From a virus (lineage: Duplodnaviria; Heunggongvirae; Uroviricota; Caudoviricetes), in the IMG/VR virus record IMGVR_UViG_2698536387_000007: a stretch of 6,005 nucleotides of DNA. One strand, written 5' to 3'. Position 1 is the first letter of the stretch; each line of letters starts with the position of its first letter. Of the stretch, positions 63 through 6,005 are shown piece by piece. A model generated the notes under the pieces. The model ran no database searches and was not told the DNA's origin. It saw nothing but the letters and a program-made list of their open reading frames with translations. The translations under genes and the position numbers were made by a program.

Positions 63-1112
63 TTACCCGAGCACGCCAGTCGCAAAGGCGTGATCAAGAA
101 AACGAAAAATTAACTCAATCTGAGAGCCGTACTTTTTCTCAAACTCCAGCGGGTCTGCATGAAGTTCGTTGTGGTGCTCCCGGCACAACGGTAGCGTGAA
201 AATATCGTGGGCCTTTGTCCCCATTCCCCCCTGACCATGACCAATCAGGTGATGCGGATCGTCAGCAGGCTTACCACAACACGCACACGGCTGTGTCTTT
301 ACCCAGCGCGTGTATTTCTCATTAACCCAACGGCAACGTTTAGGCCGCCTCATGAACGATTCAGGAGACTCCGGATCAACGGCGATACTGACAACCGTTT
401 TTTTCTGTGGTGGATTTTGTTGCTGGTGGACGTGAAGTGGCAGCGCAATATTTTTTGTGCGCTGCTTCAGTATGCTGATGGCTGTCTGTTCTCCCGGTAC
501 GATGTCACTCTCACGGTATACGGAGCGGATTTTTTCCGCTGGTAATCCCAGCGAACGACGCGCTACTGCCTCAGGTAGTGCATCCACCACCTGATTGCAG
601 GCCGCCCACCAGGATAATTCAGCCAGCGATAATTCACGCTCCTGTGTGCCATTCATTGCGTGACGAATGACGTCAATCATCCATGCTGACAAGTTTTGGT
701 GAGCAAGTTGCTCAAGTGATTCGGAGGTCTGGTCACGCAACTGGTTGTCGCAGTGCCAGCACAACACCATTGCGCCGGTACCATAACGGTGAATGACGGT
801 TTCACTGTGGTGATAATCGCCGTGTGGCCACTGGCAGGATTTAACATGGCGCAGTAACCAGTCAGACAATGCGCCAGCGCCACCAGCAGCACGAATCACT
901 CGTTCGTCGCTGAAAAATGGCAGTAATGATTTATCCTCCGCCAGCGGCTGGCGAACGGCAGGAACGACCCCGGACGGCAGATTACGCATGCTTTTCGGTT
1001 CCGGCTCCACCAGTACCCGGGTATTGTGGAATACCGGCATGGATTCACGGCCCGGCTTAACGATCACCAGCCCGAGTTCCGGTACCAGAACAGGTCGAAG
1101 TAATACCCGCAC
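63..1112 (-). CDS. ydfU: DUF968-family prophage protein (YdfU-like) with a C-terminal Cys/His HNH-like motif
   Basis: 349-aa ORF with GTG start at 1112 and GGAGG 4 nt upstream. C-terminus carries CACCGKPADDPHHLIGHGQGGMGTKAHDIFTLPLCREHHNELH (Cys pair plus spaced His). Position after hok and a rem-like gene matches my recollection of Qin-type prophage synteny. Family assignment is from memory. Confidence 0.75.
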   Translation of the reverse strand: MRVLLRPVLVPELGLVIVKPGRESMPVFHNTRVLVEPEPKSMRNLPSGVVPAVRQPLAEDKSLLPFFSDERVIRAAGGAGALSDWLLRHVKSCQWPHGDYHHSETVIHRYGTGAMVLCWHCDNQLRDQTSESLEQLAHQNLSAWMIDVIRHAMNGTQERELSLAELSWWAACNQVVDALPEAVARRSLGLPAEKIRSVYRESDIVPGEQTAISILKQRTKNIALPLHVHQQQNPPQKKTVVSIAVDPESPESFMRRPKRCRWVNEKYTRWVKTQPCACCGKPADDPHHLIGHGQGGMGTKAHDIFTLPLCREHHNELHADPLEFEKKYGSQIELIFRFLDHAFATGVLG

Positions 1113-1522: not shown

Positions 1523-1657
1523 TCAGCGGTGGCGAGGGATTTCTCCCCCGCCTGGTAATCGTACCTCGCAGAGGTCTTTCCTCGTTACCAGTGCCGTCAC
1601 TATGACGGTTAAACAGATGACGATCAGGGCGATTAACATCGCCTTTTGCTGCTTCAT
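1523..1657 (-). CDS. hok: Hok/Gef-family type I toxin, variant with the conserved C-terminal tail replaced (44 aa; possible deletion derivative or pseudogene)
   Basis: MKQQKAMLIALIVICLTVIVTALVTRKDLCEV matches the Hok/Gef/RelF transmembrane region as I remember it. SD AAGGAGAAG lies upstream of the ATG at 1657. The ORF then reads RLPGGGEIPRHR and stops, instead of the family tail (roughly IRTGQTEVAVFxAYE). The track's longer ORF (start 1714) is an in-frame leader extension, mok-like in position. Confidence 0.8.
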   Translation of the reverse strand: MKQQKAMLIALIVICLTVIVTALVTRKDLCEVRLPGGGEIPRHR

Positions 1658-1670
1658 AACCTGCTTCTCC

Positions 1671-1699
1671 TTGCCTTTCGGCGCGTAAGAGGCTAACCT
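1671..1699 (+). promoter_or_regulatory. Candidate promoter for the Sok-like antisense RNA
   Basis: Plus-strand TTGCCT (1671-1676), 17-nt spacer, TAACCT (1694-1699). This is antisense to the hok leader and start region, at the position where the R1 sok promoter lies as I recall it. The -10 is weak. Confidence 0.35.
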
Positions 1700-1705
1700 A
1701 CGTTT

Positions 1706-1780
1706 GTGAAGCATAGATTGGGCCTCAGATTAATGTTAAGCGTCTTGCAGGACGCGTAATGTTAACTGGGGCTTTTCTCT
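1706..1780 (+). ncRNA. sok: Candidate Sok-like antisense RNA (type I antitoxin)
   Basis: Predicted start about 7 nt after the -10. The region is antisense to the hok leader, including the upstream in-frame ATG (1714..1712) and its SD. A structured segment (outer stem CCUCAG/CUGGGG at 1723-1728/1765-1770, inner stem GCGUC/GACGC at 1740-1744/1751-1755) is followed by the U-rich tail CUUUUCUCU (1771-1780). Boundaries are approximate. Confidence 0.35.
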
Positions 1781-1832
1781 GTCTGCCTTACGGTGGCATG
1801 CCCGAGGCAGACAGCCTCAAGCACCCGCAGCA

Positions 1833-3896: not shown

Positions 3897-4595
3897 TTAC
3901 CCGTTATCTCCTGTCGTTATTTTCTGTATGACATCACGATGCTTATTAATTTCCCGCAGCGCGGCGCATAAGCGCTCCCACTTCTGAACCTGACCTTTTG
4001 CCCGGCGCAGCTCGCGGTTAGCCACATGCAGCGATGGTAAAATCAGACCATCCGGATGCTTTCTGATGAACGACGACTGTGACTGCACTGTGACCGCCAC
4101 ACTTTCAGTTTTAATTTCTTCCTGTGTTTCCGCTTCCCGGACTGGTAACGCAACACCTGCCGGCTGAGGAAAGGCTTTACCATCGGTTTCCGTTACCGAT
4201 GCAGCTTTCGGCTCTGCCGGTAAATTATCGCCCGGTATGCAGTAACGATATTTACCGTCCTGATTTACGCGAATCAGACGACCTTTGCTGACAGCCATCG
4301 CCAGTGATGAATTCGCCCGGCGGGAGGTAATCCCGAACATTAACGCCAGTTCGTCAGCCGACTGAGGACCATGCTGTTCAATCGCGTTAATCAGCATCTC
4401 TGCAGTGGTTTTTGGGGCCGCTTCAGTTGCCTCACTCGTCAGCCACCACATCGACCCCTTGTTATCAGCTTCGCCACGACGCTTCAGCTTCCAGAGTTCG
4501 GTAACAGCATCGTCACGGCTGATTTCAAGACGGGCTGCAATCTCGTGCGACGAGGCTTTTTTCAGTGCTTTCAGTGCGTCAAAAACGGTTTCCAT
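3897..4595 (-). CDS. Winged-helix protein, Ren-like in domain and position (232 aa)
   Basis: Start chosen at 4595..4593 (METVFDALK...) because of the strong SD GGGAGG with 8-nt spacer. The track start at 4661 would overlap the P-like gene by 32 nt. Two winged-helix-like segments; the second ([42 protein letters not shown]) resembles lambda Ren from memory. It sits directly after the P-like gene, as ren does in lambda. Confidence 0.6.
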
Positions 4596-4629
4596 TAAAT
4601 TTTCCTCCCGGTAAAAATTACTTCTCAAC

Positions 4630-5292
4630 TCAGACAAAACCGGCCGCCTTCCGGCGCTCATATTCCTGTTTCAGCAACTCAATTGGCGTTGGCCCTGGCG
4701 GGCGTTTGGGTGCTGCCAGTTGTCGCCGGACTGGCGGAACACTGAGGCCATTACCAACATGCTTTGCCCATTTCGTCAGCTGCCTTTCCACAAGCCGTTT
4801 TAACTCCCCTTCGGTCATCTGGCGCTCAATCCCCTTTGAACGCATCTCGAGGCAAATGTGGTACAGCACCGGCTGTGGCCACGGGTATTTATCACTCCCG
4901 TCGTACCGCCAGGATTCATTCCTCCAGCGACGGTATTCCTCCATCACGGCATCCACCGTCAGGCCAAATGGATTTGCCCCGCTCTCCGAAATCAACGCCA
5001 CAAACTCAGCCAGATCCGGAGGCCACGTTTCACCCGCCCGGCAGCGGTCCATGCACCGACGGCAGATCTGCCGAATTTGCTGTTCAGTCATCGCGCCAAT
5101 CTGAGCAATCCAGAGTTTCGACGGCGCAGCCCCGTTCTTCTGAGTCCAGCGGTTCGAATACACCTCCCCCATAAGCTCCCACAGCTTCCAGGCCGTTTCC
5201 GTTGCTGATAAATCCGTTTTCACGTTCCCACTGTTCGCGTGCAGCCCGGATTTCCTGAACTGCCCGTGATGCGGTGCCACCTGGTGCTGCAT
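4630..5292 (-). CDS. P: Lambda P-like replication protein (DnaB helicase loader)
   Basis: C-terminal two-thirds match lambda P as I recall it (TEQQIRQ..., [21 protein letters not shown], similar length). ATG at 5292..5290 has a good SD (AGGGGGT, 5-nt spacer). This start implies a 208-nt overlap with the O-like ORF; alternative in-frame starts are at 5172 and 5091. Confidence 0.75.
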
Positions 5293-6001
5293 GGCTTACC
5301 CCCTTGCTGACTGGTTTTACCTGTGCCCTGACGTGCTGCACGTGGCGGGCAAATTTCTGCTCCCACTGAACCTGCGTGAAAACCTTCCCCTCCGCCATCC
5401 AGTAATCCCGGAATGCGGCAAGCTCAGCAGGTGTAAACTCAGGCTCAGGCAGAGCCATACCCCACACTGCTGCCCGCTGTCGAAAATCCGGCGACGGTTG
5501 CCAGACTCCAGTCATCGGAAATTTCCCGATCGGTTCGCTCAGGCCGTCCAGGTATTCAGGTTCGGCTGTCTGCAACGACGCGTCATTCAACTCACCGGTC
5601 GTAGCACTCTCGCGCATGCGCGCGTTATGTGTGGGGTTTAATTCTTTATCTGTATCTGTATCTGTCGTGATTTGTCGTGACATATGCGTGACGCGTCGTG
5701 ACTCATCGTGACAATCAGTGTTCTGCTTCCGCAGTCTTTCCCGCTCCCGCTGCGCTCTCTTGCGCTCTGCCGGGGATTTTGCGGTTTGCGAAACATTACC
5801 GTTATCCTCCTTCATCACCTGGCGTTTTTCCCATCCGGAAATAAGATCACCATCCAGAACTCGCCCCTGCATTGCATGCAAAATTGAATCAATCACGTCT
5901 TCCGTCACATCAAGCGCACTTGCTAAATCTTCCGTCGTGACATCAATGTGACCACGTAGTGACACGCCGTGACATGTCGTGACATTTCGTGACGCACTCA
6001 C
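5084..6001 (-). CDS. O-like replication initiator with iterons inside the coding sequence; 5' end may lie beyond the window
   Basis: 305-aa ORF directly upstream of the P-like gene. The visible start is GTG at the window edge and the frame stays open to position 6005, so the true N-terminus is uncertain. An N-terminal HTH-like segment (DLASALDVTEDVIDSILHAMQ) and a basic/TDTD linker are encoded by the iteron DNA. The C-terminal segment is W/F-rich (FRDYWMAEGKVFTQVQWEQKF). Confidence 0.6.
   Translation of the reverse strand: MSASRNVTTCHGVSLRGHIDVTTEDLASALDVTEDVIDSILHAMQGRVLDGDLISGWEKRQVMKEDNGNVSQTAKSPAERKRAQRERERLRKQNTDCHDESRRVTHMSRQITTDTDTDKELNPTHNARMRESATTGELNDASLQTAEPEYLDGLSEPIGKFPMTGVWQPSPDFRQRAAVWGMALPEPEFTPAELAAFRDYWMAEGKVFTQVQWEQKFARHVQHVRAQVKPVSKGVSHAAPGGTASRAVQEIRAAREQWERENGFISNGNGLEAVGAYGGGVFEPLDSEERGCAVETLDCSDWRDD
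5649..5722. repeat. Iteron array A: ori-like direct repeats with GTGA(C/T) core at 10-11 bp phasing, plus flanking ATCTGT repeats
   Basis: GTGA(C/T) begins at 5667, 5677, 5688, 5698 and 5708, with a degenerate copy at 5718. ATCTGT x3 lies at 5648-5665. The array falls in the linker-coding part of the O-like ORF. Confidence 0.6.
5937..5998. repeat. Iteron array B: six direct GTGAC-core repeats at 10-11 bp phasing
   Basis: GTGAC begins at 5937, 5948, 5959, 5969, 5979 and 5989, consensus about GTGACAnnnC, same orientation as array A. It lies at the 5' end of the O-like ORF and encodes the low-complexity residues 1-22. Confidence 0.6.
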
Positions 6002-6005
6002 CAGA

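Follow-up and report, generated by a model that had tools for sequence, protein, structure and literature searches.

The window, by which we mean the whole stretch of 6,005 nucleotides that was analysed, probably contains the site where a lambdoid prophage of E. coli begins its replication. This origin would be located inside the gene of the initiator protein and would consist of iterons and an unwinding tract. Judged from the sequence, we put the probability of this reading at about 0.72. The features expected of an origin made of iterons within an initiator gene were found in the sequence, namely the repeats, the modular domains of the protein, an AT-rich tract, co-variation, and an adjacent gene for a helicase loader. 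In our best reading, the locus would belong with the iteron origins of lambda and SPP1. Its initiator family would be new, and its iterons are arranged in two arrays. The positions of all features are compiled in Table 1.

Table 1. Features of the window and their positions (strand relative to the sequence as analysed).
Feature	Position	Strand	Remarks
Replication-initiator ('O-like') gene	5084..6005	-	cut by window end; full protein 345 aa, start at window-equivalent 6121
Lambda-P-like helicase-loader gene	4630..5091	-	directly downstream of the initiator gene, overlaps its stop codon
Array A	5937..5993	-	six GTCAC(G) iterons 10-11 bp apart, in N-domain coding sequence; + strand GTGAC starts: 5937, 5948, 5959, 5969, 5979, 5989
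Inverted core copy	5904..5908	+	GTCAC on +, GTGAC on coding strand, in D-V-T codons
Array B	5666..5712	-	five iterons, coding-strand core GTCACG (CGTGAC on +), single orientation, period 10-11 bp; + strand cores: 5666-5671 (CGTGAT variant), 5676-5681, 5687-5692, 5697-5702, 5707-5712; GTGAT at 5667-5671, GTGAC at 5677-5681, 5688-5692, 5698-5702, 5708-5712; spacings 10, 11, 10, 10 bp
Hexamer tract	5636..5665	-	(ACAGAT)3 then AAAGAATTAAAC on coding strand, encodes TDTDTDKELN; + strand ATCTGT hexamers: 5648-5653, 5654-5659, 5660-5665
GC-rich palindrome CGCGCATGCGCG	5611..5624	.	hairpin from terminator scan, just beyond AT-rich tract
hokD (relF)	1523..1714	-	type I toxin ORF
sok	1652..1826	-	antitoxin RNA (Rfam, 115 bits, gathering score 59)
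DUF968 protein gene	63..1112	-	weak HNH-like C-terminal match
DUF1627 protein gene	3897..4661	-	

The start of the initiator gene lies 116 nt past the window end. It is annotated in an identical stretch of E. coli O157:H7 PV15-279 (L001; window coordinates equal L001 coordinates + 1499), where the 345-aa product is listed as a 'DnaT-like ssDNA-binding domain-containing protein'. The protein comprises a winged-helix domain (aa 1-103), a linker (aa ~104-190), a DnaT-like ssDNA-binding domain (aa 201-267), and a C-terminal tail. The predicted winged-helix fold of the N-domain resembles DnaD-NTD. The DnaT domain was recognized by Pfam (PF17948, E 1.4e-17, aa 201-267), and the DnaT half of the protein matches PDB entries 6aep (E 3e-20) and 4ou6 (E 6e-19). 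Equivalence to full-length DnaT was rejected: the protein scored 93 bits with NCBIfam NF002770, against a cut-off of 201, and matched profile positions 80-156 only.

The sequence-only reading of the window had called this gene 'O-like'. The term is appropriate for an analogue of lambda O, but not for a homologue, given the DnaD-NTD-like winged helix, the DnaT-type C-half and the lack of a match to the lambda O family (Phage_rep_O). A Pfam scan of the full protein with E up to 0.1 retrieved only the DnaT domain; a match to Phage_rep_org_N was likewise absent from the full initiator. Remote PHROG matches were to 'DnaD-like helicase loader' (4.5e-8) and 'replisome organizer' (6e-5), and close relatives are named 'phage replisome organizer' at NCBI. 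The downstream gene product matches Pfam Phage_lambda_P (E 4e-16) and PHROG 'P-like helicase loader' (E 5e-62), and is called 'replication protein P' in RefSeq. Elsewhere in the window, hokD and sok constitute the ordinary hok/sok module of the prophage, and the DUF968 and DUF1627 genes are common lambdoid nin-region genes.

The stretch with the hexamers and array B reads ttctttATCTGTATCTGTATCTGTCGTGATttgtCGTGACatatgCGTGACgcgtCGTGACtcatCGTGACaatcagtgttc on the + strand, and array B codes for residues ~136-151 of the full 345-aa protein. The linker peptide spanning it (CHDESRRVTHMSRQITTDTDTDKE) is situated between two conserved protein halves, which bears out the earlier assignment of the repeats to the interdomain linker. 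Tandem Repeats Finder called a period-10 array at 5675-5712. The heptamer TCGTGAC was observed 6 times in the 6-kb window, with 0.77 occurrences expected, a count reached in 0 of 200 shuffles. CGTGAC was observed 11 times in the window (2.98 expected), and 8 of the 11 copies fall in two clusters. The sequence-only reading had counted five to six GTGA(C/T) repeats at a distance of 10-11 bp. Five of these are confirmed. The proposed sixth unit, GTGTT at 5718-5722, was rejected as a weak match that is conserved neither in close nor in distant relatives, and array B is therefore taken to have five units. Its GTGAT copy has arisen recently by a G>A change, given that 72 of 79 near-identical IMG/VR relatives read GTGAC at this position.

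Array copy number is not constant. Some close relatives (IMG/VR loci among L006-L085) have gained or lost a 10-nt unit and carry 3-6 units. Many database copies of the gene are frameshifted within array B and end with SRQIKIQIKN and a stop (P0004, P0005, P0009, P0015, P0016, and others). Unit slippage seems to be a common route to the inactivation of this initiator gene in cryptic prophages.

Array A, which had been overlooked in the sequence-only reading, has the same orientation as array B and is separated from it by ~270 bp. It codes for aa 43-62 of the protein (ASRNVTTCHGVSLRGHIDVT). Relatives have four copies of the repeat at the same offset, versus six in the window, indicating that the window array carries a 21-nt insert (TCHGVSL) that corresponds to two extra units and keeps the frame. 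In a structure model of medium overall confidence (pLDDT 77; high in helices), the array A segment is a predicted beta-hairpin between helices (residues 47-56), with a pLDDT below that of its flanks. In the gene, the inverted core copy follows array A at a distance of ~30 nt and is part of an inverted-repeat pair. An inverted GTGAC core is present at the equivalent gene offset in three relatives (L002, L003, L004). The Val codon within it is frozen, with GTG in 15 of the 16 loci compared.

The codons of array A are frozen. In 16 diverse loci, Val is encoded by GTC in 16/16 cases at two positions and Thr by ACG in 16/16 cases, also at two positions; Gly is GGT and His is CAC in all 16, and Ser is TCA in 15. 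Elsewhere in the N-domain, three to six codons are used for Val, Thr, Gly, Ser, and Arg residues that are likewise invariant. Since the period is 10-11 nt, the core is translated in all three frames, yielding the peptides S-R, V-T, and C/G-H, and this three-frame reading explains why both regions spell variants of CH..SR.VT. Across 20 loci, units are spaced by 10 bp in 83 cases and by 11 bp in 28. The consensus core is GTCAC, with a G after it in 141 of the 162 units; the 4-nt spacer carries almost no information in these loci. An explanation of the repeats as a repeated peptide was rejected, both because of the mismatch between period and reading frame and because of the codon freezing. Selection is thus shown to act on the repeats at the DNA level.

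In tblastn searches, the N-half and the C-half of the protein occur separately in phages, with the junction at array B and the hexamers. The DnaT half (residues 108-305 of the window ORF) is found with unrelated N-termini in Rac (YdaU), in PPompW prophages, and in others. Residues 1-111 are found with other C-termini in Evi, Tritos, 813R8, an Aeromonas phage, and several Pseudomonas phages. GTCAC arrays at equal gene offsets (+128 to +159 and ~+388 to +429) are present in Evi, Aeromonas pAEv1818, and Pseudomonas Marin, and the N-domain matches with conserved arrays are only 52-81% identical in protein. Rac YdaU, which has only the C-half in common with the window protein, has neither array. 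Downstream partners in relatives are LygF, a DnaB-like helicase, or a primase-helicase.

In a scan of one genome per species, both arrays were identified in 20 loci, with hosts including Superficieibacter, Rahnella, Bordetella, Chromobacterium, Gilvimarinus, and Castellaniella. The position of the arrays is conserved across Escherichia, Aeromonas, Pseudomonas, Bordetella, and others, irrespective of the C-terminal half. Comparison with related phages thus found that the repeats follow the N-domain across genera, and that other subfamilies have other repeats in the same place. This cross-genus comparison supports what the sequence-only reading had suggested, namely iterons in the initiator linker, with a layout like that of the lambda ori and a different specificity.

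The family is large. At 50% identity, the N-domain family forms 937 clusters (E up to 1e-10), spread over gamma-, beta-, and alpha-proteobacteria and beyond. Close copies of the module are frequent: of 5426 complete E. coli genomes, 791 contain sequence that matches window positions 5500-6005, O157:H7 and O26 strains among them. A scan of viral contigs with a single protein retrieved relatives that were 96-100% identical and was used for copy-number variation, not for co-variation; the diversity for the latter came from an alignment-based scan of genome contigs.

Other N-domain subfamilies contain a different 10-bp repeat, of the CGAACGC or GTAACGC type, that is identical at both positions of a locus. 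Examples are CGAACGCAA, with the peptides NATERGRTQ and NATERKRTP, GTAACGCA, with the peptide VTQCNA, and CGTAACGTTAC. In order to quantify this, 56 of 71 loci were counted, and 15 with failed anchor patterns were left out. The longest string common to the loop and the 260-nt linker averaged 11.0 nt in the 56 loci (not corrected for phylogeny). Two controls, the remaining sequence of the domain and the following 260 nt, gave averages of 6.1 and 6.4 nt, respectively. A shared string of at least 8 nt was present in 44 loci, versus 6 and 8 for the two controls (again not corrected for phylogeny). At the protein level, 96 representatives of 50%-identity clusters were compared; an identical peptide of at least 4 residues in loop and linker was found in 39 of the 96, versus 1 for a control stretch, likewise without phylogenetic correction. 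The joint switching of both arrays and the existence of several repeat types are nevertheless hard to explain without a common reader.

In the remaining 12 of the 56 loci, loop and linker had less than 8 nt in common, and several of these contain no obvious repeat (e.g., L123, L132, L136, L137, L141, L151). The two-array layout is therefore not universal in the family. In L136 (a Serratia MAG) and L151 (Pantoea), the N-domain is joined to another kind of C-terminal part (YVYYVATTDGDVVRVGISRNPWAR). In the linker of both, a different, TACGTAGTACTACG-like repeat is found, with no matching loop array and no hexamer tract.

A further variant is the fusion of the N-domain to an HNH nuclease domain, without linker or C-half (P0040, P0064, P0065, P0083, P0097). 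One such fusion gene (L161:3001-3546), located upstream of a different putative organizer gene, has kept array A (four GTCAC units) and lacks array B. By analogy with ICP1 Odn (PMC8263062), the fusion of N-domain and HNH domain may be an origin-directed nuclease against rival phages. In another locus (L086), a separate HNH gene is found just upstream of the initiator gene.

The hexamer tract adjoins array B on its downstream side in the gene. The three ATCTGT repeats reported earlier are indeed present, although they begin one nucleotide before the proposed start at 5649. Tandem Repeats Finder called a period-6 array at 5643-5665. The tract is short (~30 bp, 27-33% GC). It coincides with the point of lowest GC in the gene (0.325 over 40 nt, 5639-5678) and has an AT skew of -0.56 and a strong purine strand bias. 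In most relatives, (GATAMA)n comes straight after the last array B unit, in two to eight copies. Strict tandem GATAMA repeats followed array B in 32 of 54 loci, and were found in 0 upstream regions and 1 downstream region. Alpha-proteobacterial members have GATACA, GAGACA, or GAAGCA repeats at the hexamer position. Within the IMG/VR relatives (L006-L085), the number of hexamers ranges from 2 to ~11 units in the stretch extracted.

Rac YdaU, despite its different N-domain (DUF1376), has the same hexamers and the same sequence beyond them. The hexamer tract therefore occurs in more than one initiator family and marks a joint between modules. We regard it as a candidate DNA-unwinding element and a candidate recombination joint. 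Inspection of the tract by eye yielded no convincing match to DnaA boxes or DnaA-trio-like motifs. A promoter scan of 5300-6005 detected no sigma-70-like site, leaving an internal promoter without support. In ydaU of Rac-SA53 (L005:1456-1490), the sequences GGTGTTCAAACA and GGTGTTTGAACA are located just upstream of the hexamer tract. The Rac-type initiator is a candidate to bind there, and the two sequences may be relevant to the old oriJ locus.

The palindrome had been weighed as an equivalent of the lambda ori palindrome. An imperfect copy is present in Rac YdaU, and the palindrome is absent in Evi, which has another C-half. It thus tracks the DnaT-type C-module, not the iterons. Together with a T-run on the + strand (5608-5636), it resembles an antisense terminator. 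In the annotation of Salmonella phage L, antisense terminators are likewise placed directly after the putative ori.

For binding by the initiator, opening at the hexamers, loading of the helicase, and the part played by array A, we reason from lambda (PMC7466680) and SPP1 (PMC5737612). The winged-helix N-domain would bind the GTCACG core, which is only 6 bp long, once per helical turn, in both arrays. Binding would be cooperative and on one face of the DNA, and arrays A and B may be bridged. DnaD-like N-domains oligomerize, in agreement with such bridging. The protein-DNA complex would then strain the AT-rich (GATAMA)n tract that adjoins array B and cause it to open. The DnaT-like domain would hold the opened single strand, and the C-terminal tail would recruit the P-like loader with host DnaB.

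The initiator might also bind the repeats for another purpose. One or both arrays could be control sites, acting in autorepression, titration, or handcuffing, with the origin elsewhere in the prophage. There are two separate arrays, and the AT-rich tract is found beside only one of them. Moreover, the fusion of N-domain and HNH domain at L161 retains array A in the absence of array B. Array A can thus occur outside an origin context, and iteron plasmids employ extra iterons for control. Against this stand the hexamer tract directly adjoining array B, in the classic layout of iterons and unwinding element, and the published phage precedents, in which the origin lies within the initiator gene. 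In addition, the 8.5 kb surrounding the gene showed no further cluster of repeats, and GTCAC outside the arrays is scattered there. We consider this reading as control sites unlikely. A mixed form is plausible, in which array B would be the origin and array A a control site.

If the initiator is the reader of the repeats at an origin in its own gene, the question arises which part of it confers specificity. Within the folded domain, nearly every residue that separates the GTCACG, CGAACGC, and GTAACGC subfamilies belongs to the array A hairpin (aa 45-63). The sole exception is T73, whose codon falls in the inverted core copy. In the canonical recognition helix and the wing, the iteron types show no difference. 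Array A might thus encode the very peptide that reads its own iterons, with the hairpin as specificity element, an idea that we rate as rather speculative and probably not correct. The basic helix past the domain (aa 105-125) also differs between iteron types and is a more conventional candidate.

A different protein could read the repeats, either a host factor or a phage regulator, for instance the YdaT-like or Cro-like protein encoded upstream. Co-variation inside one gene cannot identify the reading protein, and the predicted canonical recognition helix (aa 74-84) is acidic and shows no difference from one iteron type to another. However, the arrays persist across hosts with differing host factors and neighbouring genes, and a host factor would not account for at least three repeat types among related hosts. 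Because the N-domain is the only constant partner across hosts and neighbourhoods, we regard another reader as improbable. That the repeats have no function at the DNA level, and are low-complexity coding sequence, slippage-prone tandem repeats, or a chance cluster, is hardly credible: the variable copy number (3-6 units) and the common frameshifted database copies would fit, but the period of 10-11 nt is not divisible by 3, variable 4-nt spacers separate invariant cores, synonymous sites are frozen within the cores only, and the motif occurs at two places that change jointly, with an observed count beyond all shuffles.

As a probable origin within the initiator gene, the locus invites comparison with known systems. 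In the lambda ori, iterons are located in the linker between an origin-binding N-domain and a loader-recruiting C-domain, the functions predicted for the two halves of the protein here. In lambda as in the window, an AT-rich tract is found on the downstream side of the iterons, and the gene for a P-type loader comes next. The number of lambda-type iterons varies between relatives, including the Stx phages 933W and P27 (4 vs 6; PMC7466680). Lambda iterons are imperfect inverted repeats of ~19 bp, whereas the units here have an asymmetric 6-bp core every 10-11 bp, and the array was accordingly rejected as an example of the lambda O type. Other differences to lambda are the N-domain outside the Phage_rep_O family, the DnaT-type C-half, the second array in the sequence coding for the N-domain, and the candidate unwinding tract made of hexamer repeats.

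Gene 18 of Salmonella phage L / ST64T contains six 11-bp repeats (TGTCCAACGGA) followed by an AT-rich region, described as a putative ori from sequence alone (PMC8022706). We confirmed this layout in the present analysis and found a single array, without copies in the N-domain coding sequence. As in the window, short iterons of about a helical turn are placed in the linker of a lambdoid initiator gene, with AT-rich sequence after them. The initiator of phage L is unrelated to the one described here (the sole BLASTP alignment spans 23 residues, E 3.1), and its partner is a DnaB-type helicase instead of a P-like loader.

The experimentally established case for a replisome-organizer protein is oriL of SPP1, which lies inside gene 38 and contains repeats bound by G38P and an adjacent AT-rich unwinding element (PMC5737612). 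Likenesses to SPP1 G38P include the probable origin inside the organizer gene, the remote PHROG links, the DnaD-NTD-like fold, and the database name 'phage replisome organizer'. Unlike SPP1, the system in the window has no Phage_rep_org_N match, Proteobacteria as hosts, another repeat sequence, a DnaT-like C-half, and a P-like loader.

In iteron plasmids, the winged-helix Rep proteins TrfA of RK2 and RepE of F bind direct repeats and also one strand of the adjacent, repeated AT-rich unwinding element (PMC4081077). The strand-biased hexamer tract invites the idea of a similar strand-specific reading. Plasmid iterons are 17-22 bp long and located outside the rep gene, in contrast to the short iterons within the gene here.

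In the literature searched, we found no description of the origin of this initiator family. A paper on non-lambdoid Stx phages (PMC8044961) contains no mention of DnaT, primosomal protein, ydaU, repeats, or a replication origin. The lambda-type layout and short iterons with helical periodicity (phage L gene 18, PMC8022706) were already known. What sets the present locus apart is the initiator family, the second array with frozen codons in the sequence coding for the DNA-binding domain, the conserved hexamer tract that occurs in more than one initiator family, and the co-variation across many subfamilies.

The locus is an unusually clean case of overlapping codes, in which a cis-acting array fixes both the amino acids and the codons of a part of a folded DNA-binding domain. 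The short pairs of initiator and iteron would be orthogonal and are candidate replicon parts. Gain or loss of a 10-nt unit frameshifts the gene and may frequently render such prophages defective. If the hairpin should prove to be the specificity element, a change in array A would alter site and reader in one step. There would then be a built-in route to new, mutually incompatible origin specificities, and (GATAMA)n would be a universal joint for the exchange of helicase-recruitment modules. If our reading of the locus as an origin holds, a simple sequence rule, a 10-bp repeat common to loop and linker, would locate the origins of a large class of prophages, and the same rule would predict their replication specificity, and thus their incompatibility groups.
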